From the UHGV virus genome UHGV-0014912: a stretch of DNA of 33,704 bases; one strand, written 5' to 3'. Position 1 is the stretch's first letter. Each line of letters opens with the position of its first letter. A program made the translations under genes and the position numbers. Source of the stretch: a virus. The notes under the pieces were generated by a model. That model had not been told where the DNA came from, made no database searches, and saw only the letters and a list, made by a program, of their open reading frames with translations. This document shows, in pieces, positions 3,056 through 21,311 of the stretch.

Positions 3056-3090
3056 TGTTCGATACTGAAATGATTTTGCCCAGTTCTGCC

Positions 3091-3399
3091 TTAGTTCTTT
3101 TCCAGAACGTCTGAATCCTTAGTCAGAATACTAGCGTTTGAAACAGCGCTTGCGAGTTGTGAACGAACAGTCGTATAAAGTTTCTGAACTTGAGCGATTT
3201 CTTTAAAAACGCTTGTTCCGTCTTCGTGCTGAATGCAATTTAGAATCATTCGGTCGTTACGTTCTTCTGTGTTTTCATTTTTGAAATAGAATTCACCAAA
3301 CTCGGATACAGTCATCGGACGTGCATAGAATTTATAACCGTTGATTTCAACAGGTTCGCGTTTTGGTGATAGTGATGCTAACATTTCATCGAAATTCAT
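3091..3399 (-). CDS. Tail assembly chaperone (G-like)
   Basis: 102 aa ORF directly before the T-like ORF and tape measure gene; 28-nt -1 overlap containing GGAAAAG. Confidence 0.45.
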   Translation of the reverse strand: MNFDEMLASLSPKREPVEINGYKFYARPMTVSEFGEFYFKNENTEERNDRMILNCIQHEDGTSVFKEIAQVQKLYTTVRSQLASAVSNASILTKDSDVLEKN

Positions 3400-3435
3400 T
3401 TTTGTTTCCCTTTGTTGAGTTTTCTTTTATTTATG

Positions 3436-3460
3436 AAAAAGGGAGCACGAGGCTCCCTTT
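3436..3460. terminator. Bidirectional intrinsic terminator; second copy of the GGGAGCACGAGGCTCCC hairpin
   Basis: Same 17-nt stem-loop as at 279..295, flanked by AAAAA upstream and TTT downstream. Confidence 0.55.
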
Positions 3461-3461
3461 G

Positions 3462-3779
3462 TTATTTCCATTGAAAGAAATATCCGTACATTCTGAAACC
3501 TTTGTGGATATATTCAATCATTCCTAAGTTCTTCGCTTCGGTCTCAAAAAATGGACCTTGCAGTCGAACTGTCTGTCCTAATTTGAAATGACAATTAGGT
3601 TTTTTCTTCTGCGTTGATACAATAAAAACGTTTTTATCGTTGAACAGATATTTTTTAATGCGCTTATCTTTGATGTGTTCACAACTGTAAGGAACAGTCA
3701 TTGACTCTGGATTAATCTCATTAACGTAGATGTCGGCAAGTTCTTCTAATCTGTAAGTATCAAAATCGTGAATGTTCAT
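3462..3779 (-). CDS. Hypothetical phage protein
   Basis: 105 aa ORF with GGAG-type RBS and CTAAATAAAG motif upstream; no motif recognised. Confidence 0.35.
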   Translation of the reverse strand: MNIHDFDTYRLEELADIYVNEINPESMTVPYSCEHIKDKRIKKYLFNDKNVFIVSTQKKKPNCHFKLGQTVRLQGPFFETEAKNLGMIEYIHKGFRMYGYFFQWK

Positions 3780-3794
3780 TTTCTCTCCTTTTGA

Positions 3795-3804
3795 CTTTAT
3801 TTAG
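3795..3804 (-). promoter_or_regulatory. CTAAATAAAG motif (late-promoter-like) upstream of the 3462..3779 gene
   Basis: Exact 10-mer (minus-strand sense) about 17 nt upstream of the ATG with an RBS in between; one of four exact copies, all upstream of minus-strand gene starts. Confidence 0.4.
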
Positions 3805-4339
3805 TACCCGCAACACGCTTAACTGTTTTTAAAATATCGTCAGAGATTTGATTCCATGAACCCAGAGTTTTTCTTCTGTGTTGATTTTTCTTGAATACAG
3901 CAATTAAACGACGGTCTTGCTTTTTAACGTTAGTTTTAATGAGGATCGTTCGAGTTACGCCATCTTTTTTCTGCTTGACAGCTTCAAGATTATTTCTTGA
4001 TTTCAAGTTAGGAATGTTACCGAATTTGTTTTTTGAACCTCTTACGCCAGTTGGAACAAACTTGTTAATTCCTTTGTTATCATCAATCAACGGAGCAAGA
4101 TAATCAGCCTGCTTGTCTTTGATGTATATCCTATTTCGTGACCCGTTCTGATCGTATCTGAAACTGAAACCTACAGCGTTCTTAGTGAAATTAACTGGTC
4201 CATCGACTCGTCTATTGATTTTTCTTTGCAACTCAACAGAAGCAAGTTTAGACGCTTTGGTCACTTTCTTACTGAACACGTCAGATTCTTTGATTCGCCA
4301 TTTTTCAAGGTCTTTCATGACATCTTTTGCTTTTGCCAT
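3797..4339 (-). CDS. Hypothetical basic phage protein
   Basis: 180 aa, Lys/Arg-rich; start overlaps the stop of the upstream ORF (ATGA). Confidence 0.35.
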   Translation of the reverse strand: MAKAKDVMKDLEKWRIKESDVFSKKVTKASKLASVELQRKINRRVDGPVNFTKNAVGFSFRYDQNGSRNRIYIKDKQADYLAPLIDDNKGINKFVPTGVRGSKNKFGNIPNLKSRNNLEAVKQKKDGVTRTILIKTNVKKQDRRLIAVFKKNQHRRKTLGSWNQISDDILKTVKRVAGTK

Positions 4340-4536
4340 TAGTTAGCTCCTGACATCAGAAGCGTCCCAAATGTTTTTATCTGTTCTTCGCTGATAAGAA
4401 TCATCTTAGGTGCATTAATATCGAAAGCTTGAAGAACAGGAACAGCAACAGTGTTATAAGTTATAGTAACGAGAAATAGAACAATAAGATAATCTTTAGC
4501 GTGTTTTGCCATTGCTTGGAGATATTTCATTTTCAT
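4339..4536 (-). CDS. Small membrane protein (possible holin-like); true start may be internal
   Basis: 65 aa with one hydrophobic helix (LIVLFLVTITYNTVAVPVL); overlaps the 3' end of the endonuclease VII gene. Confidence 0.25.
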   Translation of the reverse strand: MKMKYLQAMAKHAKDYLIVLFLVTITYNTVAVPVLQAFDINAPKMILISEEQIKTFGTLLMSGAN

Positions 4537-4972
4537 ATTTCACCTTTATTTGGTTTGAATAGACTTTTTCAAGCTCCTTTTTCGTTTTGAGATTTGAACC
4601 TGTGATAGCTTTCATCTCAGAAAGATTTTTTCGAGAGAACGCTTTCTTTAAATCAGAAATAAGTTGTGGATGAGTAGGATTGTCTGAGTAGTCTTTTTCA
4701 AGATACTTAACAAGATTCTTTAAAAACTCTATGTAGTCGATTTTCCCATCGAGACCTGAACGTTTAAACTGATGTTTTATTCTGCCCTCGAGGACGTTTG
4801 CTTGAGCGATTAATAATCCTCTGCATCTGCCTGCGTTAGAGCCGGTTAAAATATGGTCGTGGTCAAGATGGGCTTTATTAACTTCATGAATCTTTATGCC
4901 AGTTAAAGCACAAAGACCTTTTTGCTTTTGAAAGAGTTCTTGCTTATAAATCGGAATCTCTTTTCTTTTCAT
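4496..4972 (-). CDS. Endonuclease VII-like Holliday junction resolvase (T4 gp49 family)
   Basis: Motif block HLDHDHILTGSNAGRCRGLLIAQANVLEGRIKHQFKRSGLDGKIDYIEFL matches my recollection of T4 endonuclease VII (HLDHDH...VRGLL...EG..KH.F.RSGL). Confidence 0.7.
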   Translation of the reverse strand: MKRKEIPIYKQELFQKQKGLCALTGIKIHEVNKAHLDHDHILTGSNAGRCRGLLIAQANVLEGRIKHQFKRSGLDGKIDYIEFLKNLVKYLEKDYSDNPTHPQLISDLKKAFSRKNLSEMKAITGSNLKTKKELEKVYSNQIKVKYENEISPSNGKTR

Positions 4973-5253
4973 TTTCCTCTTAGAACTGCTAGGTCGATAT
5001 CTAGCTTTGCTGTCCTTCCTTCTAAATTCTTCAAATCAGATTTGACCTCTCGAACTTCATCCTGTTGTCGTGTTAAATCGCTTATAAGCGAAGCATCTTT
5101 GGCGTCATTAACTGCGATGCTTTTTTCGATGTCTGAGAAACGTTTTTCAAGGTCAAGTCGTTTTTCATTGTTTGATTTAATTTCGGTATAAACCCAAGCC
5201 AAGAAACCTCCTAGAGCACCCAAGATGGAAATGATCAGTGCTATATCGACCAT
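4969..5253 (-). CDS. Membrane-anchored coiled-coil protein (i-spanin-like or assembly protein)
   Basis: 94 aa; N-terminal TM helix (IALIISILGALGGFLAWVY) followed by a charged coiled coil. Confidence 0.3.
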   Translation of the reverse strand: MVDIALIISILGALGGFLAWVYTEIKSNNEKRLDLEKRFSDIEKSIAVNDAKDASLISDLTRQQDEVREVKSDLKNLEGRTAKLDIDLAVLRGK

Positions 5254-5283
5254 CTTGAATCTCCTTTTTAAAGACCTCCTTGT

Positions 5284-5293
5284 CTTTATTTAG
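5284..5293 (-). promoter_or_regulatory. CTAAATAAAG motif upstream of the 4969..5253 gene
   Basis: Exact 10-mer about 33 nt upstream of the ATG. Confidence 0.35.
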
Positions 5294-5295
5294 AA

Positions 5296-8200
5296 CTATA
5301 CTTTACTAATAAAGTAAACTGCTCTTGATGCTACCGCACGGTTCAACTCAGCCGTATATGTTAAGTCAACAGCTTGACCAGCTTCGATATAAGCGACACC
5401 ACCGTTTGAGCCGTTTAACGAACGGGATTCCGTGTAAACAACTTCCTGACCGTTTGATAATCTCAGCCACGCTTTACCACCGCCCCAACCAGTACCGCCT
5501 GAATATGTCCAACCTGAAATAGCAACGTTAGGAATAGCAATCATGCGTCTCCAGTTGACAGCAGGAAAATGAACTGTTCCCCACGGATCTATAAATCCCA
5601 TGTCAATAACGTCGCCTTCAATTCTGTCAGCGTATACAGTTCCTGTGAAATAACCTGAACCGCCTCTGATTTCTCCTGAGAAATAACCTGAGTCAGCTTG
5701 AATATTTCCTTTAACGTTAACGTTTTGGAAAGAAGCCCAACCGTCTTTTCTGATTGTCCAACCTTGAGTACCACCGGAAGAGAACCAGTTGTCAGAAGAT
5801 ATTTCATAAGCAATCTGAGCCGAACCGATCTGAGCATTACCAATTTTCGCTGATGTAATAGCACCGTTTTCAATCTTCGCGTTGTTAATAGCAGCATCGC
5901 GAATCTTTGCCGTATCAATTGAAGCGTTTGCAATCTTCGCATTACCGATTGAAGCATCACGAATCATAGCATCTTGGAGATAAGTCTTGTTATCTGCAAC
6001 CATGAACGGAGGAACAGCACCTTCAGGAGTGTTGTTATTCGTAATAGCGATTTTATCAGCGTTGAAAATAATGCTTGATGATTTCGAACCGTCAGCATTT
6101 TTATTAGCGAGCATACTGATACCAGCAACAACACCGTCGGCATTAGTCTGAACTGCCCATTTGCTGTTAATAGTTCCTGTCAGTTCGTCAACACTTGCTT
6201 TTGCTTCTGTTGAAACACTTGCAATTGCTGAGTCAGTTTCAGCTTTCAGTTGGCTAATTGCGCTTGCTGTTGCTTCTCTATCGTTAGCTTGAGTTTTTTC
6301 AACAGTCGTGATAGCAGCGTTTAATTTACCGTCAAACTCAGCCGATTGAATAGTAATAGCCTGATTGATAGCGCCATTCGTTCCATCAGTTATTTGAGTG
6401 TGTAACTCAGCGTTTTTGGTAATAATCGTCTGATTCAGTTCTGTTGTTACTTTTTGCTCCGACGCTATAACTTCTGTATCGGTATATTCCTTAGCAAGTT
6501 TCAAAGCGTCTTCAATAGCACCGTCAACGCGTTCGTTCAGGTCTAACAAGTCTTCTAATTGGTCTTTCATATCGTCGTTCCATGGAATATCCCATTTCAT
6601 ATCGATATAAGTCGCCTGTGACCAAGTAATCTGGTCTTGTCCGAAAACGTCATACCATGCTGCACGAACATAATATTGACCATCTTCTAACGGGAAGTTG
6701 TCTAAAAACGGACTTGAGCTTGAATAAACGTGAACAATTTCATTAAAGCTTTGGTCTTTCGCAATATGAACAATTGTGCCTTTGAAGTCAGGTACTTCAG
6801 GAATATTATCACGTGGGTCATTCCATGAACACATCAGCATTCCAGGACCATTCGAAGCTGTGAAACCTTGAATTGCAGGAGCTTGATTGTTCTTGACAGT
6901 AATAACACTCGGATCTGATTTCATACCAGCGTGACCGTATGCAGTAACAGAAACTTTCAGTTCGCGACTCAGACCATTACCCAAGTTCATATTAAAGTCG
7001 TATACAAAACCTAAATCTTTAGTCTTGTAAATTACAGGTCGTTGACCTTCGATTTTAATTTCGTAATACTGAAAAACTTCACCGAATGTCTGTAACGTGT
7101 CGTCAACATAGAATTTCTGTGCGCTCTGGTCGTCCCAGGCGAATTCAAATTGAGTCTTGTTAGTGGTGTACTGATCCTCAACCGCGTTCGTTAGGCGCAA
7201 TCCTGTAACGCTTGGTAAGTTATACGTAACATCAGGGTTAACGTTATTCACATATACCCATTCTGAACGATACACAACACCAGAAGCACAAACACGAATA
7301 TCAAATTTCTGATTAGGGTCAAGACTCATAATCAAGAAATAATCGCCTGATGTGAAACCTGCTTGAGTCCAAGAGTTCTGACCAGCAAGACTATACTGAA
7401 TATAATAACCTGCGCGGTTATAATCAGGTTCAGACGTCCATTGCACTTTCAAAGTTCTTCCTAAAGCGGTTTCAGCAACTGCTTTAACTGTCAGATTCTT
7501 CGGTGGAATAAGAACAGCTTTGTTAGGAATGTTACTTCCTGAGTTATCAGGGTCTTTCGCGTAGTCAAGATCGGTATAAACTTCTTCGATATATTCAGCA
7601 GCGGTAATAGTAACGATACCAGCAGCACCTTTTTCCATCGTGCGATCAACGTTAGTTACACGCCATAAGGAATCAGTCAGTTCCAGTTCTTCGAAATTAA
7701 CTCTGATAATATCCCAGACCTGAACGGTATAAGCATCAGCAGACGAAAAACTAATAACCTGTTGTAACAGTGATTTGTTTCGTTCTATTGAAGCAATTTT
7801 GTCCAACTGAGCTTTATCTTTAACGAATCTGTAACTAATATCTTTTGCGATAATACGTTTATCTTTTGCGATAGTTCCATCATTTGTTACGTCAGACGGA
7901 TAACGAAGAACTTGGTCAGAATAGTCAATCAAAGGATCTTGATATTTCACGTTCAGAGTGTTGTAGTAATTCTCTGTTCCACCATCGTTCAAGCTAACAG
8001 TTCCGGCGTTAATATTATCCTCGTTGAAATCATATTGAACAACACCAGGACCATCGATAACGCAAGTAACTAATCCGAAAGACTCTGTGATAATACCGTT
8101 AAAAGCACCTGCAATCTGAGTTAAGTTTTCTTTGAATGAACCATTCGGGTCAGTTGCACCGTTTGAAAACAGACTGTTCAGTTTTGCGTGTTCTGCACAT

Positions 8201-8985
8201 TGCTTGAAACTATCAAGATTGATTTTATCAAGTGGAATACCCAGACCGTAACGTTCGTTCGTTAGATAATCGACTGCTTGACTAGGACCATTGTTTGAAG
8301 GAGAGATGCCTCCTGTGTTCAGGTCAGTAATCAAACGTCCTCTAACGTCAACAGCTACTTGACTGTTAGGTTGCAGGATATCAGCTTGGTTTTCTAAGTC
8401 TTTGTTACGTTTACGCATAACGACACAAACAGAAGCGATACCATTACCAGTTGCAGAATCAGGCCAACCAGCTGGGTCATTTCCTAGATATTTCTGAGCA
8501 AGCGTGAAAACGTGACCGTATGGTTTACCAGTTGAGAATTCAACTTCAACGAAATTCTGATATTCAGCAGCGATAGAGCCTTTATCTAAAATGCCATCTC
8601 TGTAAGTTCCATCAAGTAAGATTTTCTGATTATCCATATACAGGTTTTTGAAGCTATCAACTTCACCTTCACAGATTGCAAAGACTTGCACCAGATAAGT
8701 CGTATCGACACCAACAGATTTCCAAACGTTAATAGTCCCTGTACGTTGTTCGCCGTAGATAATAGGAATTACGCTTGCAGGGTCAGACGTTGTTCCTAGT
8801 GTCGTTGCAGTGTCTGCGCTATTAAATCGAGGAACAGATTCTTTCATCGAATAGGACATTAATCCTGAAACAGCAGCAACAGCGACACCAATACCGATAG
8901 CAACAGCAAGAGCAGCACCAGCGGCATATGCCGCAGCAGCAGCGGAAGCACCCGCAATAATTGCACCAATAGCAGCAATAGCCAT
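5296..8985 (-). CDS. Tail tip / host-specificity protein (lambda J-like) with an I-like hydrophobic N-terminal segment
   Basis: 1229 aa; N-terminal region loosely resembles the start of lambda J; C-terminal tandem short repeats ([40 protein letters not shown]); N-terminal Ala/Gly-rich hydrophobic stretch. Confidence 0.55.
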
Positions 8986-9401
8986 TATTTTCTCCTGTTG
9001 AAAATTAATTCAAAATTAAAATCGTTAACGTTCACTAGTTTGTATTTGTTTTCGTGTTCAACCAATGCTTGATTATTGAAAACGATGGACGCAACGTAAT
9101 AGACACGGTTTTTATGTTTTTTCTTAATTAAGATAACCGAGCCAGTTTCTATCTTTTCTGATTTCGCAAGATGATTTTCACAAGCTTCGAGAACGTTGTT
9201 AAAACCAGTTAGCTCTTTGCAAATCTTGAGACCTTCGGGAATACTCTTGTATTTGTCTTTTAATTTGTCTGTGTATTCAGTAGCACAAACAAGGTCGATA
9301 TATTCAGCAACAAGGATATTACAGTCGTTTTGACCGAACTGATGTTCTTTGTTGATATATCGATTCAGTAATTTTGATAAGTCAGCTTGAAATTTAAACA
9401 T
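8985..9401 (-). CDS. Hypothetical tail-associated protein (possibly a K-like cysteine peptidase)
   Basis: 138 aa immediately upstream of and coupled to the J-like gene; Cys and His residues present ([11 protein letters not shown]) but no confident motif. Confidence 0.25.
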
Positions 9402-9414
9402 GTTTCACCTCTGA

Positions 9415-9424
9415 CTTTATTTAG
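9415..9424 (-). promoter_or_regulatory. CTAAATAAAG motif upstream of the 8985..9401 gene
   Basis: Exact 10-mer 17 nt upstream of the ATG, directly after the terminator of the preceding gene. Confidence 0.4.
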
Positions 9425-9426
9425 AG

Positions 9427-9452
9427 CCAAAAAAGGACTCATAAGGAGTCCT
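9427..9452 (-). terminator. Intrinsic terminator after the putative major tail gene
   Basis: Stem AGGACTC / GAGTCCT with loop ATAAG, preceded on the plus strand by an A-run (U-run on the minus RNA). Confidence 0.6.
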
Positions 9453-9467
9453 TCTTACTTCGTTCAA

Positions 9468-9947
9468 TTAAGCTTCTGGAGTAGTCGTATCGATAACGCC
9501 TGAAGCAACTGGACCACCGTCAACAGAAAGTGTCAGAGTCAGACCAGAAACTTCTGATTCTCCACCATTGTGAACAGCGCTTGACAAGAAACCGTTATAC
9601 ATTTTCGCAACGCCCAGATCTTTAGCAGCATCGACCCAATAAACGATTTTGAACTGACCACGTTTACCATCTTCCGCAAGCTTAATCAGAACATCATGAA
9701 CGCTTTCTGGAATATAGTTAACAGTCAAGTCGATATCAGGAACAGAACCACGACCAACAAGCTTACGAGAATACTTATGAGAGAAGTTCGGAGCTGTAAT
9801 AACTTCACGCTCAATACCAGTAGAAGGGAATGCACCAGTCTCTGGAATTTCAACGAATTTGTCGTTATTCAAGTCTGTGTTAGTGATATCAGAGTTATAG
9901 AACACACTGACGTAAGAGCCAGAGAAAATATCAAATTTATCAGCCAT
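9468..9947 (-). CDS. Putative major tail (tube-like) protein
   Basis: 159 aa; loose pattern resemblance to lambda V; TATAAATA element 30 nt upstream and a strong terminator downstream, consistent with a highly expressed structural gene. Confidence 0.35.
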   Translation of the reverse strand: MADKFDIFSGSYVSVFYNSDITNTDLNNDKFVEIPETGAFPSTGIEREVITAPNFSHKYSRKLVGRGSVPDIDLTVNYIPESVHDVLIKLAEDGKRGQFKIVYWVDAAKDLGVAKMYNGFLSSAVHNGGESEVSGLTLTLSVDGGPVASGVIDTTTPEA

Positions 9948-9976
9948 TTTGTTTTCCTATTTGAGTTAATATAGTT

Positions 9977-9984
9977 TATTTATA
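9977..9984 (-). promoter_or_regulatory. TATAAATA element (T4-late-promoter-like) upstream of the 9468..9947 gene
   Basis: Minus-strand TATAAATA about 30 nt upstream of the ATG. Confidence 0.3.
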
Positions 9985-10006
9985 AAGGGAATTCCTCCCC
10001 TTTTTG

Positions 10007-12829
10007 TTATTTAGCTTCAAGTTCTTTAACGCGAGCACTTAATTCCTTGATAGCGTTAACAAGCAATGCGTTTACAGCAGCAGGGTTAACACCAAGAATT
10101 TCATCTTCACCGAAAGAACTAACAGCTTCTGGAAGAACTTCTTTTAAGTCTTGAGCAATAATACCTGCTTCTCGAACTTCGAATGAATATTCAGTTTCGA
10201 CTAAATCGGATTTCTTATCGTATACGTAACCAGTAAGTTTCTCGACTTTATCAACTGCGTTTTCAATTTCTTCAAAGTTTGATTTCAGACGTTTATCGGA
10301 AGTGCTAACCCATTGTGGAGCACTTGCTGTTCCGTTACCATCGAAGTGATAGTTTGCACCACCCACGTGTAATTGAGCCGCTGGTGCTGCGCCTTCTGGA
10401 TTATAAACGTCCATCGCAGCGCCATATTCTGAACCCCAGTGAACATGTTTCCAGATATTGATACATTTATTACGCGCAGGAGCTTCAACAATCATTCCAG
10501 CAGGACGTATACGCCATGCACCCCAATCAGCCCATCCCTCAACTTGACCTTGAATCATCGCATTACCTTCTCCAGTTCTAGTATTTCCTACGTAAATACC
10601 GCGAGATTCATTAGGAGAATTAACTGCAATTTGACGAACAGTATTTAATCCTGAAGGATTAAACGTAGCAAGATGAATCGAATCTGTAATAATCTCTAAA
10701 TGTCCGTCAGTTCTTTGACGAATACCAGTATCATTATCCCCAAAGGTGATAGAGTTCCCGCCTATACTGTTATGAGTGTTAACACCGAAACTCGTAATTC
10801 TATTTGTTTCAACTTGTTGAGCGTTAACCTTATTCGTAAAGAAGCCACCATAAGCATCAAAAATATAATTTGCTGCAATATCTTTTCGACCTTCTTCGTT
10901 AATACTTGCAACTCTAAGAACACCTTTGCCATTATCAATTGCGTTGTCTCTGATCATACCCAGTTCAACACGAGTCGGCCAACCTTTACCAAGTGAAACA
11001 CTTTGTAAACCATATCCAGGATAATAATCGCTTGTACCGGCTTGGTCACCAAATTCAATTGTTACAGGAGGAAGTTGATTCCATTGGTCTGCCCAAGCGT
11101 GACTATTGTCAGCAGCCCATTTTCTTCCGTCGATTATAATGTTTTTTTCGTGAAATCTTGCAATTCTATTACCGCCTACATTAACACCGAAGTATTTGTT
11201 TCCTGAATCCAACTCCAAGTCAACAGTAGAACTTTCGTCTTGATTAATAGTAGAACGTGCAATTAATCTATTCTCACCAGGACTTAAACGACCAAATAAC
11301 CATGATGTTTTGTCACCGTCTGTGCCTCTAATATATGCAGCTTCGCGGTTTTTCGTTTTTAGATTAATCGCTTCATATTCAGCAGACGTATTAAAACGAG
11401 TTGCGTTAATTGTTCCGTCACCTTGCATCGAAGCAATAAAATTATCAGGTCCAACACCGTGAAACCAACTGATTGAGTTAGTAGCTCTAGGATCGTCGCT
11501 TTGACCAACAACAGCTTCATGAAAAATAGTTAGGTCATTTCTAGCTCTCAGTTTACGAAGATGGTTTGATTGTTGCTCCTGAGCATTCCAAACAGGCAAA
11601 GATTCGCTATCGTAGCTTCCGTAAGACTTGTAGTTATAAATCGTCTGATAGAAACTTGCAGGACCAGAAACACCAAGACCTTCTTTAGTATCAATAAAAG
11701 TTCTGCCTGAGCCTCTCAGATAATGATAATATTTTCCCGAGTTAACTAATCCGAAATAACTTGTTGCATCACCAACGTTATTTCCATCTGTTGTCGTATC
11801 TATTTGAATTAAGGCATTACCTTCAGGAGCTATCTCATTAACATTTCCATCGGCATCACTTCTGAATCGGAAATGAGTTTTTCTATTAAAGAAGTTCTCC
11901 GAACCTGCGATAGAAGCTGTTACAACGTTATTTGAATAGAAGTTTAACCATCCGTCTTCTCTCCATTTAAAGCCTGTATCAGAATCTCCCATCATAATAC
12001 TATTAGAACCTAAGGCATTAGGATTAGAACCAAGATTTATATAATTTGTTTTAATACCATCTGCATTTAACTTAGGAACAGTTAAGTCTCCTGTCATCGT
12101 ATCACCAGACTTACTGACTTTTTCGTTAATCATATTAGTCAGAGTCTGATTATCAACAGTCAGTCGGTCATTAACTGCTTTAATCTTTTCGTCGGCATCA
12201 GCTTTATTCGCATCAACTTTGGTATTAATAGCTGTATCGTTCTGGTCAACTTTTGAATTCAGATTATCAACGCGAGTGTTAATAGCCGCGTCGTTAGCAT
12301 CGACTTTCTGTTCGAGTTTCGTCAGGTCAGCACTTGAGCCTGTTTGGACTTTACTGATTTCAGAATCAACGTAATCTTTACGAGTAGCGCTTTCAGGAGC
12401 AGCAGGAGCAGAAGGTAAAGAAAACTGACCATTACCGTTAAGCACAAAGTCAGAACGCTCTCCTGTAGCTTTTCCTTTCTCTACCGTAATACGAAGTTCG
12501 CCTTTAGCGTCTGTCTGAGCAGGAGAACTAATACGCGCTTTTGCTTTACCGTGTTCATCAGCAAAAACAATATCGCTTTTATCAAGATTTTTTAAAGTCA
12601 GATTCGAATCGGATTCGATATAACTTGCTTTAATTTTGCCAGTAAAGGTCTGACCGCCTTCAACAACAGCGTCAGCACCATTACCGATGTTAATAACAGA
12701 GTCGCCTAGTTTAGTGAAAATCTTTCGATCGGCTAAGTTAATAGCGATTTCACCATCAAGCATGTTTTTTGCTTCTGGCTTTCTTCCGGCGACGTCTGTT
12801 CTATAATGTTTAACTTTGTTATTTGCCAT
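10007..12829 (-). CDS. Tail fibre protein with C-terminal intramolecular chaperone (S74-type autoproteolytic) domain
   Basis: 940 aa; periodic coiled-coil repeats (NTRVDNLNSKVDQNDTAINTKVDANKADADEKIKAVNDRL); C-terminal block (SDKRLKSNFEEI...GVNPAAVNALLVNAIKEL...ELEAK) typical of endosialidase-type chaperone domains. Confidence 0.65.
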   Translation of the reverse strand: MANNKVKHYRTDVAGRKPEAKNMLDGEIAINLADRKIFTKLGDSVINIGNGADAVVEGGQTFTGKIKASYIESDSNLTLKNLDKSDIVFADEHGKAKARISSPAQTDAKGELRITVEKGKATGERSDFVLNGNGQFSLPSAPAAPESATRKDYVDSEISKVQTGSSADLTKLEQKVDANDAAINTRVDNLNSKVDQNDTAINTKVDANKADADEKIKAVNDRLTVDNQTLTNMINEKVSKSGDTMTGDLTVPKLNADGIKTNYINLGSNPNALGSNSIMMGDSDTGFKWREDGWLNFYSNNVVTASIAGSENFFNRKTHFRFRSDADGNVNEIAPEGNALIQIDTTTDGNNVGDATSYFGLVNSGKYYHYLRGSGRTFIDTKEGLGVSGPASFYQTIYNYKSYGSYDSESLPVWNAQEQQSNHLRKLRARNDLTIFHEAVVGQSDDPRATNSISWFHGVGPDNFIASMQGDGTINATRFNTSAEYEAINLKTKNREAAYIRGTDGDKTSWLFGRLSPGENRLIARSTINQDESSTVDLELDSGNKYFGVNVGGNRIARFHEKNIIIDGRKWAADNSHAWADQWNQLPPVTIEFGDQAGTSDYYPGYGLQSVSLGKGWPTRVELGMIRDNAIDNGKGVLRVASINEEGRKDIAANYIFDAYGGFFTNKVNAQQVETNRITSFGVNTHNSIGGNSITFGDNDTGIRQRTDGHLEIITDSIHLATFNPSGLNTVRQIAVNSPNESRGIYVGNTRTGEGNAMIQGQVEGWADWGAWRIRPAGMIVEAPARNKCINIWKHVHWGSEYGAAMDVYNPEGAAPAAQLHVGGANYHFDGNGTASAPQWVSTSDKRLKSNFEEIENAVDKVEKLTGYVYDKKSDLVETEYSFEVREAGIIAQDLKEVLPEAVSSFGEDEILGVNPAAVNALLVNAIKELSARVKELEAK

Positions 12830-12841
12830 TTTCTTTATCCG

Positions 12842-13870
12842 TTAAAAAACTCCTGCATCTAAGGTTTCTCCTAACGCTACACAATTAATCTCTAATGGAG
12901 TTGGTTTATTACTTGGAGAATAGACTTCTGAGCCTTTGACCTTTACAGAAGTTGAGTTAATTTCATTACTATTTAGAGCCAGAATTTCACCTTGAGGAGC
13001 AGAAATCTTTTTACGTACTGTCAGATATTCCTCAATAACAAGTGAACCTTTCAGAGTTCCACCAGTAATTGGCAAAGCGTTAATATCTTCAGGAGTAGGA
13101 CGTTCAAGTTCTGTATAGACTTTCACCCACGGAGATTCTGTAACAGTTTCGTCGTGTGCAAGTTGCTTATTTCTGATTCTTATACTTGGATTACCGACTG
13201 ACGAACCAATAAGCTCCCAACCTTGACCATCAGGATGCTGAATAGCCATAGCAGACGTGCCAGAGTTATAAGGGTTATCGCTGTTCATTGCATCAACTGT
13301 TATCCATCTATTACCAGTTAATAGACCTAAGTCTTTGACACCCTCGATTTCTTCTGTACCAGCACCAACACCATAATCACCAACGTTTAACGGAGTTGTG
13401 AATTCAGCAAAGCCAGTAAAAATCTGACCATCAGGAGAAAGATTAAAAGTCGTAGTAACAACTGAGTTTTCGGAGCCTGTTGTTTCTTTCTTAGTTACCC
13501 AAGCGTTGAAAATATGATACAGACCGGATTCATTTTCTTTTTTCGATTCACCATCGATAACATAAAGGTTTCTGAATCTGATCAGTTTCTTTTCCATTAG
13601 CGCTTCGTCAAGCAACTGATAAACTGGGTCATCAGAAGTTTCAAAAAGACTTATAGAAGTGTCATTAACTGTTACATCACCAGATAATTTAACCGTAAAG
13701 TCATCGCGAAAGTCTTCCAGCGATTGGACATCTTTCTTGAAACCGATAACAGGAAAAGCAGCAAGATTCGCAGTTGAAATATATCCTGGGTCGTTATAAC
13801 CGGGGTGCTCAACGACTTCTGGGTTTACTGAAACTCTTACGTTATTTCCTACAAAAATATCATTTGTCAT
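12842..13870 (-). CDS. Tail structural protein (tube-like or fibre-associated)
   Basis: 342 aa between the head-tail genes and the tail fibre; C-terminal LPITGGTLKGSL resembles the GGTMTG motif of fibre shafts. Confidence 0.3.
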   Translation of the reverse strand: MTNDIFVGNNVRVSVNPEVVEHPGYNDPGYISTANLAAFPVIGFKKDVQSLEDFRDDFTVKLSGDVTVNDTSISLFETSDDPVYQLLDEALMEKKLIRFRNLYVIDGESKKENESGLYHIFNAWVTKKETTGSENSVVTTTFNLSPDGQIFTGFAEFTTPLNVGDYGVGAGTEEIEGVKDLGLLTGNRWITVDAMNSDNPYNSGTSAMAIQHPDGQGWELIGSSVGNPSIRIRNKQLAHDETVTESPWVKVYTELERPTPEDINALPITGGTLKGSLVIEEYLTVRKKISAPQGEILALNSNEINSTSVKVKGSEVYSPSNKPTPLEINCVALGETLDAGVF

Positions 13871-13877
13871 TTCTGCC

Positions 13878-14276
13878 TCACATTATGTATTCAAAAGTTA
13901 AAATTACTTGTGCGCTAACATGACCATTTGATGCTTCACCGTCGTAATCGGTAAAACTCGAACTCGGATAAATTTTATTGATTTTAAATTCACGAAGTTT
14001 CGGATCATCAGCTTTAATAGAAATCAGGTCGTAAACAGCTTTGTGAACGTCTGTTTCCTTTTTCTCAGAGAAAATATTAATCGTAATATTTAAAACGGCT
14101 GATAGCTTCGATTGAAGATTAATTCTTGTGTATTCTTCTGTCATTTCTGGAATCATCACTTGAACTGTTTCTGTAACTCCAGTTGTAAAAGCATTCTTTA
14201 CGTATTTCAGTTTTAGTTCTTTTACAATTATTTCTTCCAGTGCTCGTTTAATTCCTAAGCGTGGCATATTAATCAT
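13878..14276 (-). CDS. Hypothetical head-tail connector or completion protein
   Basis: ORF track extends to 14336, but GGAGAC RBS plus ATG at 14276 immediately after the upstream stop suggests the shorter start; position between capsid and tail genes. Confidence 0.3.
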   Translation of the reverse strand: MINMPRLGIKRALEEIIVKELKLKYVKNAFTTGVTETVQVMIPEMTEEYTRINLQSKLSAVLNITINIFSEKKETDVHKAVYDLISIKADDPKLREFKINKIYPSSSFTDYDGEASNGHVSAQVILTFEYIM

Positions 14277-14565
14277 AGAATGAGGTCTCCTGTTCATTTT
14301 TATAAGCAAGGTAGCAATTAACGAGTCCTGAACCATCGTTTGTCAGATAAGCGACGTTATACAAAATCTCGTTTAACAAAACAGAATCGTCTTGCTTAAT
14401 TGAGTTAATATCAGTGGTTATATAGATTGTCTCGCTTACTTGTCCGTTATCGTTATTAATTTCAATCTCAACAATACCAAGAGCGTCTTTATCGTTGATT
14501 TTAATTTTTTGACCGAAACGAGTTAAGAAAGACTGTTTTTGTTTTTCTGTATATGGGAAAATCAT
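14269..14565 (-). CDS. Hypothetical head completion or adaptor protein
   Basis: 98 aa directly downstream of the capsid gene terminator; RBS AAGGAGA. Confidence 0.3.
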   Translation of the reverse strand: MIFPYTEKQKQSFLTRFGQKIKINDKDALGIVEIEINNDNGQVSETIYITTDINSIKQDDSVLLNEILYNVAYLTNDGSGLVNCYLAYKNEQETSFYD

Positions 14566-14580
14566 GTTGTCTCCTTTTTA

Positions 14581-14590
14581 TTTTATTTAG
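14581..14590 (-). promoter_or_regulatory. CTAAATAAAA motif upstream of the 14269..14565 gene
   Basis: Near-exact copy (9 of 10) of the CTAAATAAAG motif between the capsid terminator and the RBS. Confidence 0.3.
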
Positions 14591-14600
14591 TCCAGAAACG

Positions 14601-14625
14601 AAAAAGGGACCCCTTTCGGAGTCCC
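14601..14625 (-). terminator. Intrinsic terminator after the major capsid gene
   Basis: GGGAC...GTCCC stem-loop with flanking A/T runs, immediately 3' of the capsid stop. Confidence 0.55.
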
Positions 14626-14644
14626 TTTGATTAATCAATTAAGA

Positions 14645-16615
14645 TTATTTTGCAGCTTTAGAACCAGCAGCTTCTGCTTTTTCATACAGATACAGACGGT
14701 CGTCAGCACAAACTTTCCAATCGATGTCAGCCCAAACACGTGGAACGATAGCACCGCGTGATTTGTAAGTTGTATCGTCCAGGTCAAGTGCAAGACCTTC
14801 CCATTCAGCAACAGTAACAGCAGAGAAATCACCAGCGATAACATTACCATCTTTCACCAGACCGGATCCGATAACGTCCTGTCCGCCGATTTTGTTCATG
14901 TCGTCGATGATATAACCAGCAACGTTCTGATCACGCAGGGTGGTTTTCAGATCACCTTCAAGAGCAGCAGCCATCAGATATTTGAACTTAGCCATTTCAA
15001 CGCCGTTACCTTTAGCTTTTGCAGCTTCAACGATGAACTCTTTGTAGGACATTCCCATTTTCTGAGCTACTAACTGTGCAACGATACTTTCTGGAGCTTT
15101 AGCATCGGTAATAGAACCGAACATCAGACCTTCCAGTTTAGCGCGAGACTGTTTTACGATGTGATCAGAAATGAAGCTTCCCAGATTAGGCATAGTCAAC
15201 AGAGCCTGACGAGAGATTGGGTTACCACCAGTAAATGTCTTAGGCATGAACTGAATGTTGGTAAATGCGCTTTCACCTTCTGGAGATTCACCGTTTTCGT
15301 CAACGAAACCGAATGCATCAACTGAGGATTTAGTCTGCTTAGGAACAGAAATTGGAGTTGTCAGACCGGTCAGGAAGTTCATTCCCAGTTGATCAGCAAC
15401 AGTGCCTTTCAGAAGCATTTCAACGAATGAATCGTAACGCTGAACTTCTTGCTGTACGCTTGATACAGTAGAAACGGTGTTGATTGCGCGGGCGTTCTGA
15501 GCAAGAGTATTAACAGGCAAGAAAATACCAGTCGAAACGTTCTGACCACGTTGTAGACGCTTACGAGTCATTTCCTGAGTATATTCAGCAGCAGCACCGC
15601 GAACAGCTTTACCAGCCATCATAGAGCGAACAGCATCACCAAGGTCGAATTTATTTTCCAGATTTACTTTAGTATCTTTAGTCATTTTACGAATTACCGC
15701 CGGAGCTTTGTTAGGTTTAATAGAGCGTTTGAATGCACGAGCTGTCATGCCTTTTGCAATTGCGTTCGCAACTTCTTTCTGCGGAACTTTATAACGTTCT
15801 GCGACTTCCAGAATTTCTTCTGTTTCTTCTGCGCGTTCTTCTTCTGTCAGTTCGTCATCAGCATGGGATTTATCAGTTTCGGTAACAGCAACGTCACCAG
15901 CTTGTTCTGCGTTTGCTTTATCTTCTGCAAGAATTTCTTCGCGTTTTGCGCGAGCTTCTTCTGGCATTGATTCAATTTCATCGATAGACATATCGGTCAA
16001 TTCTTCAATCGCCATTTCAACGATTTCGTCAACGGTAATATCTTCAAAACGTTTCATCTTATTTCCTCTATTTGTTGAATTTAATTTTTCGCGCAATTTC
16101 GTAGCGCTTTTGTTATCTGTATTTAGAAGTCTTCCCAGCCCAACAAAATCGTCAGCAGGAACAGTTACGAAACTAATTTCGTATGGTGCCCATTTTGTAA
16201 CTAACAGATTATCGCCTTGAAGTTCATATTCATTGATGTCGTATCCGAAGGAGATTTTACTAATAGTTCCTTCTTTAACTTTTTCATAAACTTCTTTAGC
16301 TAATGCACCGTGTTTACTAAATTGGACTTTTGCGCGACCAAATCGGTCACTATCGATTCGAACAGAACCAGGAATTACTTTTCCCAGATGATTATCGAAA
16401 TTATGATTGAACAGCAGAGCCGCACCATTATTAATTCGAGTCAAGTCGGCATTATCTGGACCATCGTGAACAAGAATTTCATTAACAGTAACAGGGTGAC
16501 CATATTCGTTTTCAATCTGACGCTCGACAGGAGTTTCAGAGCTAAACGCAATTTCAAAAATACCATCGGATTCAGTAATATCTTGAACTGTATACTCGCG
16601 TTTTAATTTAAGCAT
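14645..16615 (-). CDS. Prohead protease - scaffold - major capsid protein fusion (HK97-fold capsid), with an in-frame internal start for a capsid-only product
   Basis: Single ORF; N-terminal ~165 aa protease-like, acidic scaffold-like linker, C-terminal capsid-like region; ORF track start at 16627 is TTG, ATG at 16615 has a GAGGA RBS; internal in-frame ATG at 16057 with AGAGGAAATAAG RBS. Confidence 0.65.
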   Translation of the reverse strand: MLKLKREYTVQDITESDGIFEIAFSSETPVERQIENEYGHPVTVNEILVHDGPDNADLTRINNGAALLFNHNFDNHLGKVIPGSVRIDSDRFGRAKVQFSKHGALAKEVYEKVKEGTISKISFGYDINEYELQGDNLLVTKWAPYEISFVTVPADDFVGLGRLLNTDNKSATKLREKLNSTNRGNKMKRFEDITVDEIVEMAIEELTDMSIDEIESMPEEARAKREEILAEDKANAEQAGDVAVTETDKSHADDELTEEERAEETEEILEVAERYKVPQKEVANAIAKGMTARAFKRSIKPNKAPAVIRKMTKDTKVNLENKFDLGDAVRSMMAGKAVRGAAAEYTQEMTRKRLQRGQNVSTGIFLPVNTLAQNARAINTVSTVSSVQQEVQRYDSFVEMLLKGTVADQLGMNFLTGLTTPISVPKQTKSSVDAFGFVDENGESPEGESAFTNIQFMPKTFTGGNPISRQALLTMPNLGSFISDHIVKQSRAKLEGLMFGSITDAKAPESIVAQLVAQKMGMSYKEFIVEAAKAKGNGVEMAKFKYLMAAALEGDLKTTLRDQNVAGYIIDDMNKIGGQDVIGSGLVKDGNVIAGDFSAVTVAEWEGLALDLDDTTYKSRGAIVPRVWADIDWKVCADDRLYLYEKAEAAGSKAAK

Positions 16616-16668
16616 TTTAGTCCTCAAGATTGAGCGTCTTTCGACGCTCTTTTGTTTTCTGAATATAT

Positions 16669-18225
16669 TTAGATGTCCTTCCCAGAGTTGTCCGAATTAA
16701 TTTCTGCAACCTCAACTTGTGCACCAGCAGCAAGTTGAGCAGGAGCCGCAGCAACTTTAATTTGATTATCGTACTTAGGAATATAACGATTTCGTTCCTG
16801 TTCAATCTGAGCAAACACCATGTCTGGATCTTCACCACGACTAATAATAACGTCAGCAGCAGATTTAAAACCGTTTTCAACATCAATAGAGTCTTTCTGA
16901 GAATCTTTAATTGGGTCAATTGATTCCCACGCTGGATAAGTCCAAGAGATTTTGCTTAGAACCAGAGGAATAGCAGTCATCTTAATGTCAACTTGCTCTT
17001 TAAGAATTGCCCATCCTAACCATTTCTCGAAAATAACCTCGAAAACTTGCTCTTTAAGGTCACGCTGAACAGATTTAAACATCACTCTTTGAGCTTGATC
17101 ACCGAAGCGAGCCGCGGAGTAGTTAATATTTGCAGTGTCACCTTTCCAGCCTTGCTTATAAAAGCCATAACCCATTGCAAGGTGGTCTTCCAAACGATCG
17201 GTAAAGCTAATGAAATCATCACCGCCTTGAGTGCTTGTAAATTGCTTAATATCATGACCTGCAGGCAATTGATGAATCGTACCAGCTTCGAATTCTTGAA
17301 TAATATCAGGAGCAGCATATTCTTTGTCTTCGTCGTCTTCTGCCAGATCGATACTTTCTTGACCATCTTTATCCTGAGTGATGAAGCCCATAGAACTTGC
17401 GGCAGCACGTTTTTGAACCAGAGTTGCAAAAGCAAAAGCGTTATATTGATTCATAGTGTCGATATTCGCCACAGCTTCTGGAATACCTCTGCGTTGATCA
17501 GGAAATAATTCTCTGTAATAGTGAATAATCTCGTTAGCAGGAACACCGTAACAATCACCGCCTTCTGTTTGTGTCGATTGATTCATTTCTTTAAACCAAT
17601 AACGAACAGGAGCGTCGTCGTTGTCGTATTCGATACCATCTAGAATATAACCGTCGTCTGTTTGCTGTCTGTCACCGTATTTACAGCGGGCAGCTTCGAT
17701 AATCTCCAGTTTGAATTCATCATCTTCGTGAATTCTGATAAAAACTTCACCGTCGATAAATCGTGAACGTTCTACGAGTTGTTGAAAACGACGCCAGTTA
17801 ATACGTCTGTTTTTGCTAAAGCGTTTAGCGTTTTTTGACCAGAATTCAAACTGAGTCATAATTTCATTGTTTAGCTGAACATTAGGACGTCCGTCAGTTC
17901 CTAGAATTCGAACCTGAGGATTAATTCCTTCACCAATAACGTTATCAACTTGATACTGAACAGCGCGTTTACCCAAAGGAGTATTAATGCTGATAGTTCT
18001 GGACATCGCTCGTACGTTGTCAGCAGATGAACGAATTTCGTTATTGATTGTTGCAGTTCTGATTAACGATTCTTGAAAATCGTCATCAAGTCGATCTGTT
18101 CTTGGACCAATCTGACGTTTTAATTCATTACCAAAAGCTGTATCGTTGTTAATAACAAGTTTCGGACTTTTTTGTTTTCGCTGTTTTGATTCAGGACGTT
18201 TTCTGAACCAATCTAGAATATTCAT
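16669..18225 (-). CDS. Portal protein (lambda B-like)
   Basis: 518 aa; block NYSAARFGDQAQRVMFKSVQRDLKEQVFEVIFEKWL resembles the lambda B region SYSSARASANESWRYFMGRRKFIAARLATQMF; follows the large terminase. Confidence 0.65.
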   Translation of the reverse strand: MNILDWFRKRPESKQRKQKSPKLVINNDTAFGNELKRQIGPRTDRLDDDFQESLIRTATINNEIRSSADNVRAMSRTISINTPLGKRAVQYQVDNVIGEGINPQVRILGTDGRPNVQLNNEIMTQFEFWSKNAKRFSKNRRINWRRFQQLVERSRFIDGEVFIRIHEDDEFKLEIIEAARCKYGDRQQTDDGYILDGIEYDNDDAPVRYWFKEMNQSTQTEGGDCYGVPANEIIHYYRELFPDQRRGIPEAVANIDTMNQYNAFAFATLVQKRAAASSMGFITQDKDGQESIDLAEDDEDKEYAAPDIIQEFEAGTIHQLPAGHDIKQFTSTQGGDDFISFTDRLEDHLAMGYGFYKQGWKGDTANINYSAARFGDQAQRVMFKSVQRDLKEQVFEVIFEKWLGWAILKEQVDIKMTAIPLVLSKISWTYPAWESIDPIKDSQKDSIDVENGFKSAADVIISRGEDPDMVFAQIEQERNRYIPKYDNQIKVAAAPAQLAAGAQVEVAEINSDNSGKDI

Positions 18226-18704
18226 GGATTTTTAAACCTCACTTTGATGGTCGTAACAGGTGATTCACCGTTTGCCATTTTTTCGGATCTAATAAGACTT
18301 GCCAGATTCGAAACAAGACGTTTTCTGGCTAATAGCAACGAATCAAGAGTTTCATAAACGAAAGATTTTCCGTTGATGCTCATTTGTTGAATAGCTTCTT
18401 CGTTGTTTGTAAGTCTGTATTCAATAACTTTGTCCAAGTCGTTTATTAATTCTCGAAGTTGTTGTTTCTTCGATTTTTCATTAAACGGTGACTTAACTTT
18501 AATTAATTCATTTGAAATCAAAGCGCCGTTACTAAAGATAACAACCGAGAAAGTTCCTTCGATAAAATCAGAAGTATCCACCCCGATATCAGCGGGGCAG
18601 TTTTCTTGCTTGAACAAAACAGTTTCTTTTGAACCGATTTGAACGTTAGCGCCTTGAGCATTAGTTAATTGAAGTTTTTCACCGATGAAAATTTCTTTTG
18701 TCAT
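18222..18704 (-). CDS. Hypothetical protein between terminase and portal (possibly head-tail joining, W-like)
   Basis: 160 aa; stop overlaps the portal start; no confident motif. Confidence 0.3.
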   Translation of the reverse strand: MTKEIFIGEKLQLTNAQGANVQIGSKETVLFKQENCPADIGVDTSDFIEGTFSVVIFSNGALISNELIKVKSPFNEKSKKQQLRELINDLDKVIEYRLTNNEEAIQQMSINGKSFVYETLDSLLLARKRLVSNLASLIRSEKMANGESPVTTIKVRFKNP

Positions 18705-18728
18705 TCTGGTATCCTCATCAGTAATATT

Positions 18729-18738
18729 CTTTATTTAG
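18729..18738 (-). promoter_or_regulatory. CTAAATAAAG motif overlapping the large terminase stop, upstream of the 18222..18704 gene
   Basis: Exact 10-mer 27 nt upstream of the ATG. Confidence 0.35.
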
Positions 18739-20630: not shown

Positions 20631-20775
20631 AAGTCACCTAAGCTAATGAATCCTTTATGGATTCCATCTCTCATGACTCTATTTATGAAAATATCCACAA
20701 TTATTTTCGGAGGTCGCTTGCACCTGGATTTTCGCCTGTTAAAGTTCAATCCATCGAAACACGGGGAATAACGAA

Positions 20776-21216: not shown

Positions 21217-21311
21217 AAGCTGTTAAAACTGTAATCGCTGTTATCGTTGCTGTTTCTTCTATGTCTGCTAATGGTATCGCGATAGACTTTGATTATTGCG
21301 TTAAGATATGA
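21213..21311 (+). CDS. Small hydrophobic peptide (32 aa), translationally coupled on both sides
   Basis: MKAVKTVIAVIVAVSSMSANGIAIDFDYCVKI; ATGA overlaps with both the upstream stop and the downstream start; below the ORF-track size cutoff. Confidence 0.25.
   Translation: MKAVKTVIAVIVAVSSMSANGIAIDFDYCVKI

Follow-up and report, generated by a model that had tools for sequence, protein, structure and literature searches.

The window analysed here, a 33,704-nucleotide stretch of the viral genome UHGV-0014912, carries an integrated, siphovirus-like element of ~31.7 kb (270..31960, boundaries approximate) that lies between the host genes ldtB and ybiT, and in which a short box resembling the late promoters of phage T4 precedes packaging, head, tail and lysis genes. 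The right flank is 99.8% identical to E. coli ybiT, and the guanine-plus-cytosine (GC) content, 39% for the whole element and 0.33-0.44 within it, contrasts with 0.53 in the host flank. Of 5426 complete E. coli genomes, 7 contain a relative at ~80% nucleotide identity, which in every case occupies the ldtB-ybiT interval and measures 32-35 kb, and therefore the window holds the whole element (~270 to 31960). A search for att sites found no direct repeat of at least 8 bp at the element ends, and a serine recombinase (integrase) gene lies at 30417-31922, beside the ybiT junction. The hosts of the family are Enterobacteriaceae, comprising E. coli, Citrobacter, Enterobacter, Kluyvera and Atlantibacter.

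The element encodes a lambda/HK97-type head module, with terminase (PF05876, PF20454), portal (PF05136) and a protease-capsid fusion (PF04586, PF05065), within a larger set of terS, terL, portal, protease-capsid, connectors, major tail protein, chaperones, tape measure, Dit, hub, tail tip, fibre and lysozyme, and all virion genes of the window copy are intact. The other cargo consists of a T4-type endonuclease VII, a GIY-YIG protein, a NUMOD3 protein, a TIR-domain defence protein and the serine recombinase. An earlier, sequence-only reading of this DNA had called it a lambda-like prophage; the terminase, portal and capsid are indeed lambda-like, but the label does not extend to regulation, as Pfam, PHROGs and NCBIfam searches recognised no replication module, no CI/Cro-type switch and no Q-type antiterminator.

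That reading had also singled out an exact 10-mer at four positions in minus-strand sense (3795-3804, 5284-5293, 9415-9424 and 18729-18738), and all four copies are present there as CTAAATAAAG, each at a gene boundary. Its estimate of well below one copy by chance agrees with dinucleotide-preserving shuffles, which yield a mean of 0.08 copies against 4 in the window and never reach four (0/100). The near-variants it had noted upstream of the 98-aa gene (ACTAAATAAAA) and of the protease-capsid gene (TCTAAATATAT) also exist, as does the exact 8-mer TATAAATA at 9977-9984 (-) and 23530-23537 (+), to which a third, previously unlisted copy at 24044-24051 (+) can be added; the short spacing to the start codon, with a ribosome-binding site in between, corresponds to 17-34 nt from the end of TAAATA to the ATG, with a Shine-Dalgarno (SD) sequence between them. 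Copy number by itself was dropped as a signal, since six other 10-mers reach 4-5 copies, all scattered within coding sequence, and the case for CTAAATAAAG is therefore built on placement. The 8-mer TATAAATA alone is not enriched either (3 observed against 1.65 expected), and TAAATAAA occurs seven times, in minus sense throughout and at a gene boundary in 7/7 cases. Alignment of the sites revealed a core that is shorter and commoner than the 10-mer, with the general form [A/C]TAAATA and the consensus N[A/C]TAAATA, of which CTAAATAAAG is an extended form found at four places. Thus, the proposed motif is real and sits at gene boundaries, but its core is the N[A/C]TAAATA box, which marks ~15 candidate promoters, including those of terL, terS, lysozyme, Dit and the NUMOD3 operon.

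[A/C]TAAATA occurs 21 times in the element, and 16 of these copies fall in the zone 10-85 nt ahead of a start codon in the same orientation, which makes up 3.9% of oriented positions (binomial P = 5e-19), so that the enrichment analysis over the whole prophage, which the sequence-only reading had proposed as a check, comes out in favour of the box. By form, the upstream zone takes 7/7 copies of TAAATAAA, 8/9 of ATAAATA and 8/12 of CTAAATA, and the box is the commonest 7-mer of the upstream windows. Boxes are found on both strands, always in the orientation of the downstream gene, and they precede the ATG by 17-74 nt, in most cases by 17-50. Four junctions have a T-run terminator hairpin 2-14 nt ahead of the box, and two have a box that overlaps the preceding stop codon, with a different frame in each. 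An artefact of stop codons or AT-rich spacers was excluded, given that the distance to the stop ranges from -6 to +56 nt, that boxes also stand in divergent regions where no upstream gene ends, and that composition-matched permutations of the box letters show no comparable upstream concentration.

The individual sites were compared across four complete E. coli lineages, 13 IMG/VR contigs, 26 metagenome contigs, two Atlantibacter chromosomes and the related ~25-kb module of the Escherichia phage DCP80 record (GenBank PQ671644, L006-L008; related loci are designated here by L numbers). Among packaging and head genes, terL (18735-20630) is preceded at 50 nt by CATAAATA (20680..20687, -), at the start of a long late operon and in the intergenic region divergent with a GntR-like gene, where the box is the sole block conserved across the aligned lineages. 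The fourth copy of the 10-mer belongs to ACTAAATA (18732..18739, -), which shares bases with the stop codon of terL and leaves 28 nt to the downstream 160-aa head-tail joining gene and portal; this junction carries ACTAAATA, TATAAATA or AATAAATA at the same position, depending on the lineage. Upstream of the protease-major capsid fusion (14645-16615/16627) lies TCTAAATA (16666..16673, -), kept in all lineages as NCTAAATA, AATAAATA or TATAAATA, and 16 nt downstream of this box the capsid mRNA leader contains the stem-loop GAGCGTCGAAAGACGCTC (16632..16649, -), which shows compensatory substitutions in every lineage, DCP80 included, and is probably a 5' stabiliser or a processing site. The capsid gene is followed by an intrinsic terminator hairpin with a T-run (14606..14625, -), whose stem covaries between lineages, and 14 nt further on by ACTAAATA (14584..14591, -), 19 nt upstream of the 98-aa head-closure-like gene (14269-14565). 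The terS gene (25329-25877, assigned by phrog_57) has GATAAATA 40 nt upstream (25917..25924, -), the same in all lineages, and a second upstream box, CATAAATA (25951..25958, -).

Tail genes are organised in the same manner. A hairpin (9987..10000, -) after the 940-aa tail-fibre gene stands directly ahead of TATAAATA (9977..9984, -), 30 nt upstream of the 159-aa putative major tail gene (9468-9947), and relatives carry TCTAAATA, GCTAAATA or AATAAATA at this site. The major tail gene is in turn followed by a terminator hairpin with a T-run (9434..9452, -), with compensatory changes among relatives, and then by TCTAAATA (9418..9425, -; third copy of the 10-mer), 17 nt upstream of the DUF6950 gene (8985-9401) and the 1229-aa tail-tip gene. 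ACTAAATA (3798..3805, -; first copy) overlaps the stop codon of a 180-aa gene 19 nt upstream of a 105-aa gene (3462-3779), after which come the terminator hairpin GGGAGCCTCGTGCTCCC (3441..3457, -) and CATAAATA (3428..3435, -), 29 nt upstream of a 102-aa tail-chaperone-like gene (3091-3399), a 120-aa gene and the 799-aa tape-measure gene. An identical 17-nt copy of GGGAGCCTCGTGCTCCC (279..295, -) follows the tape-measure gene at the end of the late operon. Dit (28270 or 28282 to 28845) and hub are preceded by CATAAATA (28245..28252, +), the inverted-repeat partner, 12 bp away, of the CATAAATA box (28265..28272, -) 29 nt upstream of the lysozyme gene (27751-28236).

Besides lysozyme, the lysis and nuclease genes with a box include a 94-aa gene (4969-5253) followed by endonuclease VII, with TCTAAATA 34 nt upstream (5287..5294, -; second copy of the 10-mer), a box that L001 has kept even with sequence inserted upstream of it. 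The operon of the NUMOD3 gene (22091-22699), a 70-aa gene and a 99-aa gene has ACTAAATA 72 nt upstream (22771..22778, -), with box and leader conserved and the sequence further upstream unalignable. On the plus strand, TATAAATA lies 25 nt upstream of the GIY-YIG gene (23530..23537 and 23562-24008, respectively), and a further TATAAATA (24044..24051, +) heads a conserved ~180-nt leader that is followed by an unannotated 49-aa open reading frame (ORF) of helix-turn-helix (HTH) type (24233-24382) and a 305-aa gene (24395-25312). No box accompanies the serine integrase, the GntR-like gene, the TIR cassette or a 245-aa gene. Other copies of the motif are ambiguous or intragenic: GCTAAATA at 10008..10015 (-) overlaps the tail-fibre stop codon upstream of the hairpin, where conservation may be merely coding; TCTAAATA at 12970..12977 (-), 141 nt upstream of the tail-fibre gene, and the copies at 16120-16127 and 653-660 are kept in relatives, but within conserved codons; and one more intragenic copy lies at 25023-25030.

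Comparison of the four complete E. coli lineages showed that the box is kept at homologous junctions while the upstream flanks are diverged or unalignable, and that the hairpin stems at these junctions carry compensatory substitutions. At each junction, the TAAATA core is invariant across relatives, down to ~32-40% capsid identity, whereas the two bases on its 5' side vary, with any base at position -13 and, at -12, A or C, rarely T and almost never G. Lineages have their own preference at -12, which is always C in L010, L025 and L027 and always A or T in L013 and L032, and the boxes of the DCP80 module are TATAAATA. The lysozyme/Dit pair switches together, being CATAAATA in the window, GCTAAATA in L001 and AATAAATA in L018. 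AT-rich relatives at 24% capsid identity or less served as a negative control, in which the motif has neither strand bias nor upstream placement. A profile search of genome contigs with the capsid alignment recovered only Atlantibacter and Endozoicomonas, and one with the portal alignment recovered no relatives.

Taken together, placement and conservation make it very probable that these boxes are promoters. The divergent terL/GntR region and the lysozyme/Dit spacer, which measures ~45 bp and consists essentially of the two facing boxes, are informative here; for the spacer, the upstream side of lysozyme and of Dit is the coding sequence of the other gene, so that both promoters have to lie inside the spacer; conservation of the box in divergent regions that must hold promoters shows that it is not merely a signal within a transcript. 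A box straight after an intrinsic terminator is, moreover, the layout expected of re-initiation and makes poor sense for a signal in read-through RNA. An RNA-level motif, such as an endoribonuclease site, an S1-binding translational enhancer or a stability element in a polycistronic late mRNA, could account for the AU-rich composition, the position 5' of SD sequences and the two copies that overlap an upstream stop codon. Such a motif is nevertheless hardly credible, since no co-oriented upstream transcript is expected in the two divergent regions or past the strong terminators, the 17-74 nt range to the ATG is too loose for a ribosome-binding enhancer, and the box is identical in sequence to a known class of DNA promoter. 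No Rfam family was found in the window.

Recognition by the host sigma-70 was considered and rejected. No conserved -35 or other upstream element accompanies the boxes, the flanks being unalignable or occupied by site-specific terminator hairpins, and there is no TGn extension. If TAAATA is read in the register with T at -12 and A at -11, the would-be -7 position holds an invariant A, and the other register places T at -11. The element contains fewer sigma-70-like sites than expected (33 against 46.7+-7 and 16 against 32.7+-5.6), and none of the predicted hexamer pairs overlaps a box. The boxes might still be weak -10-only or AT-rich UP-like elements for host sigma-70 or sigma-S, possibly silenced by H-NS and served by no dedicated factor, in keeping with the match of TAAATA to TATAAT at 3/6 positions, including the -12 T and -11 A, and with the spurious sigma-70 starts that AT-rich foreign DNA like this element often has. 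We consider this highly improbable, as the invariant A replaces the essential T at the would-be -7, neither a -35 nor a TGn is conserved, sigma-70-like sites avoid the boxes, and the strict orientation and restriction to late genes would be left unaccounted for. Promoters of the T4 middle (MotA-box) type were not enriched either, with 1 found against 0.4 expected.

The promoter class that the boxes do match is that of gp55. The T4 late promoter TATAAATA spans positions -13 to -6, and -13 is poorly conserved in other T4-like phages; Aeromonas phage Aeh1, with a divergent gp55, has the consensus CTAAATA from -12, and the published consensus forms thus comprise TATAAATA, NATAAATA and CTAAATA (PMC1524935). 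In Ackermannviridae (ViI-like phages), the late motif is CTAAATAcCcc (PMC7283392), and these phages encode homologues of gp55, gp33 and gp45 (PMC3184105). T-even DNA in the DCP80 record has TATAAATA 29-33 nt before the ATG of gp22, gp18, soc and gp34, the gp18 promoter reading TATAAATAAAG, whereas E. coli phage CBA120 uses ACTAAATA seven times (gp22, gp18, Hc2, orf209 and three tailspike genes) and GCTAAATA, CCTAAATA, TATAAATA, CATAAATA and TTTAAATA at other late genes, all ~30-45 nt before the ATG. In repertoire, in the variable positions -13 and -12 and in geometry, the boxes of the element equal the late boxes of T-even phages and CBA120.

With T4 late promoters, the element shares an 8-bp -10-type box with a TAAATA core and no -35, a position ~20-45 nt before late structural and lysis genes, often just past a terminator or stop codon, and, at three sites, the exact TATAAATA, together with the 3' extension TAAATAAAG in common with the T-even gp18 promoter. 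It differs in that half of its boxes have C at -12, which is rare in T-even late promoters, and in that the boxes reside in an integrated 32-kb siphovirus-like element without gp55, gp33, gp45 or T4-type replication genes. The mixture of NCTAAATA and NATAAATA and the distance to the ATG are those of Aeh1 and the Ackermannviridae, ACTAAATA being the commonest form in both the element and CBA120. These phages, unlike the element, have their own divergent gp55, gp33 and gp45; the downstream cCcc of the Ackermannviridae is usually AAG or AAA in the element; and the sole protein similarity to CBA120 is a generic Zn ribbon. The proposal of -10-only, T4-type late promoters ahead of structural genes is therefore backed by placement, conservation, the lack of sigma-70 features and the match to gp55 boxes, and we judge it probable that the boxes are of the gp55 class functionally, and not in sequence alone.

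The element itself appears to lack the cognate sigma. The sequence-only reading had seen no gp55 homologue, and phmmer and blastp, run over all six frames with gp55, gp33 and gp45 of both T-even phages and CBA120 and with T-even RpbA as probes, likewise returned nothing in the window (E >= 0.4), nor was there a match to gp55, gp33, gp45 or RpbA among 8026 ORFs of ~45 related loci. Its suggestion that gp55 or gp33 be sought in the rest of the prophage is answered by the window, which is the entire element. Pfam, PHROGs and NCBIfam recognised no sigma factor or known late activator there. Beyond virion, packaging, lysis and integrase genes, the four complete lineages have in common only a GntR-like winged-HTH protein, the 305-aa protein and the TIR cassette.

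Could an element-encoded factor without detectable similarity to gp55 read these late promoters, making the element an autonomous temperate phage with a novel late switch? The candidates would be the 49-aa HTH-like ORF acting with the 305-aa coiled-coil/Zn-ribbon protein, or the GntR-like protein. Both the GntR-like and the 305-aa proteins occur in all four complete lineages, the small HTH ORF lies just upstream of the 305-aa gene, with small ORFs annotated at the equivalent position in L001 and L003, and the conserved leader of this operon looks regulatory, with sigma-70-like -35 and -10 hexamers and a terminator hairpin. CBA120, in addition, has its gp33 homologue beside an FmdB-type Zn ribbon with 43% identity over 46 residues to the 305-aa C-terminus. 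Against such a factor, Pfam, PHROGs and NCBIfam detected no sigma-like signature. The 305-aa family does not extend beyond Enterobacteriaceae and consists of hypothetical proteins throughout, most of which lack the Zn ribbon, a generic motif. The AlphaFold model of the 305-aa protein (mean pLDDT, predicted local distance difference test, 63) shows an alpha/beta domain followed by a coiled coil, unlike the all-helical sigma region 2, and had no significant match among PDB folds (best E = 0.03), so that this protein was rejected as a hidden sigma. An HTH or winged-HTH activator would, furthermore, leave unexplained an asymmetric 8-bp box identical to that of gp55, variable positions included, and if it worked with sigma-70, the invariant A at the would-be -7 would be disfavoured. 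We regard an own factor of this kind as unlikely.

Two observations on this region stand by themselves. The leader at 24044-24394 (+) combines the TATAAATA box, the sigma-70-like TTTACT-17-TAAAAT (24102-24130) and a hairpin with a T-run (24185-24210), in which relatives show compensatory changes (GCACTCTTCGGAGTGC versus GCGCTCGCAAGAGCGC), and it could be an attenuator or the source of a ~150-nt small RNA. In CBA120, the gp33 homologue overlaps the FmdB-family Zn-ribbon gene (L051 42859-43339), and the similarity of the latter to the 305-aa C-terminus (window 25103-25228) is of doubtful significance.

The boxes might also be relics: a structural module derived from a gp55-encoding phage could have kept its promoters in integrated elements that are now defective, with the boxes idle. 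Several relatives have insertion sequences (IS) in terL, capsid or tail genes, no excised or circular form was found among 17 contigs with the exact portal protein, and the gene order is rearranged relative to the DCP80 module, where it is the canonical siphovirus order of major tail protein, tail assembly chaperone, tape measure, Dit, hub, DUF6950 and a J-like gene (L006 13200-18700). In the window, Dit and hub are instead inverted beside the lysozyme and integrase genes (27751-29492) as a separate unit. This unit has its own box, however, which speaks against relics and suggests that one promoter per unit makes the module tolerant of rearrangement. The virion genes of the window are intact, TAAATA is strictly kept at ~15 junctions where neutral intergenic sequence is unalignable, and the box changes flavour at a fixed junction (ACTAAATA, TATAAATA or AATAAATA), which indicates continuing selection rather than frozen remains. 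Idle relics thus seem quite improbable.

Several features connect the element to gp55-encoding phages. The best cultured-phage matches of its endonuclease VII are in T4-like Straboviridae, at 46% identity (1669 records), and its NUMOD3 protein (22091-22699, -) resembles the DNA-binding half of the Seg-like homing endonucleases of T4-like phages, with no nuclease domain. The 148-aa GIY-YIG protein (23562-24008, +) was not found in the three complete E. coli relatives L001-L003. DCP80 is the only cultured-phage record with a related structural module, and it is filed as a complete Gaprivervirus/Tevenvirinae genome. It contains a T4-type virion set plus the ~25-kb lambda-type/siphovirus module, three copies of rIIA and several T-even segments duplicated at 94-98% identity; because of these duplicated segments and the two virion modules, we take it to be a chimeric co-assembly and reject a true hybrid phage. 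No second phage record has the module, nor does any complete E. coli genome. In it, TATAAATA occurs 11 times on the coding strand and 0 times on the other, matching the box of the co-sequenced T-even phages.

Since the element has no gp55, gp33 or gp45 of its own, we infer that its late transcription depends on a superinfecting phage that encodes gp55, a reading in which the sigma for the boxes comes from a helper and to which we assign a probability of about 0.45. The ~15 boxes would head short, terminator-delimited units for packaging, head, tail, lysis and nuclease genes. Host sigma factors would not be expected to use them, and the late genes would stay silent until infection by a virulent phage, whether a T4-like member of the Straboviridae or a ViI-like member of the Ackermannviridae, provides a gp55-type sigma in trans. 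RNA polymerase bearing this gp55 would then start ~6 nt past each box. The endonuclease VII of the element, judging from T4 biology, would lend itself to packaging from branched replication intermediates like those of T4. Lineages appear to have tuned positions -12 and -13 to the gp55 of their helper, with TATAAATA accompanying T-even phages and NCTAAATA or NATAAATA elsewhere. More tentatively still, these elements may form an undescribed family that is integrated, encodes virions, lacks its own late control and apparently its own replication, and uses the gp55 of virulent phages as its switch, as a bacterial counterpart of virophages.

A number of points weigh against helper dependence. T-even phages degrade cytosine-containing DNA and block its transcription via Alc, so a T-even helper would require that the element escape this attack or be replicated with modified bases. 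Because T-even late promoters seldom have C at -12, half of the boxes may suit T-even gp55 poorly; CBA120-type usage suits them better. All 17 contigs with the exact portal protein are chromosomal, with the element integrated and, as noted above, never excised or circular, and some copies are decaying, as indicated by the IS insertions in terL or capsid of several relatives. The 49-aa HTH-like, the 305-aa or the GntR-like protein could be an unrecognised activator. We know of no described satellite with a complete head, tail, packaging and lysis set. Finally, the co-occurrence of the DCP80 module with T-even phages is suggestive but is a single case, in one chimeric assembly.

The defence cargo deserves separate mention. 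The TIR gene (CAP12/Pycsar-effector type) and the gene of a YuaX-like 95/99-aa protein form a cassette at 26214-27409 (-) that is 97-99% identical where structural genes are only 60-95% identical, and such identity across diverged lineages points to recent exchange of the cassette. It has no late box, and sigma-70-like sites lie upstream at 27487-27515 and 27659-27688. In the variable region between terL and terS, two relatives, E. coli MS 115-1 and 2021CK-01361, carry a retron Ec67-type reverse transcriptase (L002 31107-32861 and L005 29374-31143). Retron Ec67 was reportedly located in 1990 within 34 kb of foreign DNA at 19 min of the E. coli map, which would presumably fit this family.

Three gene starts probably need revision. 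For Dit, ATG 28282 is the likelier start codon, with the SD sequence GAGAGG ahead of it; the capsid fusion probably begins at ATG 16615, giving the 656 aa reported by gene callers; and the 152-aa ORF at 13878-14336 is called as 132 aa elsewhere.

If a helper sigma does drive these promoters, the late genes of the element would be silent until a T4-like or ViI-like phage infects, and this would constitute a new phage-on-phage parasitism in E. coli and its relatives, exerted through a borrowed helper sigma. Such elements, which also have anti-phage cargo aboard, namely the TIR effector and, in a relative, retron Ec67, would then influence how infections by T4-like and ViI-like phages end, and these phages count among those most used in therapy and biocontrol. 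Annotation pipelines label such elements ordinary or defective prophages, and one relative was co-assembled into a "T-even" record.

Compared with lambdoid siphoviruses, the element has the same lambda/HK97-type terminase, portal and protease-capsid fusion, but it lacks the Q antiterminator, the single pR'-type late promoter and the CI/Cro switch, having many terminator-promoter units instead, and its GC of 39% departs from the ~51-53% of the host. Like the satellites P4, phage-inducible chromosomal islands (PICI), capsid-forming PICI (cf-PICI) and PICI-like elements (PLE), it is integrated and has its own integrase and defence cargo; no module for replication or lytic switching was recognised in it, and its late expression would seem to hinge on another phage. 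With the PLE of Vibrio cholerae it would share a virulent helper, and its NUMOD3 protein parallels PLE CapR as a nuclease-less DNA-binding protein derived from a homing endonuclease (compare PMC8096241). Satellites, however, borrow virion parts from the helper, whereas this element encodes the full set and would depend, as proposed, on the helper sigma through shared promoters. We know of no satellite with such a dependence, and a literature search turned up no paper that describes prophages with gp55-type promoters, nor one on a satellite of T4-like or ViI-like phages.

The closest parallel in logic is offered by virophages such as Sputnik, small viruses that have their own capsid genes and use the late promoter motif of the helper giant virus. 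Virophages belong to another host domain and have unrelated proteins, and for the element the dependence is deduced from its sequence; yet the combination of own capsid genes with the late promoter of a helper would, in both, tie late expression to the helper's transcription machinery. To our knowledge, every late promoter of the gp55 type described to date comes from a large virulent phage with a gp55 gene of its own. The promoter class is thus a known one, and what would be new is an integrated element without gp55 whose entire late programme is predicted to be written in it.

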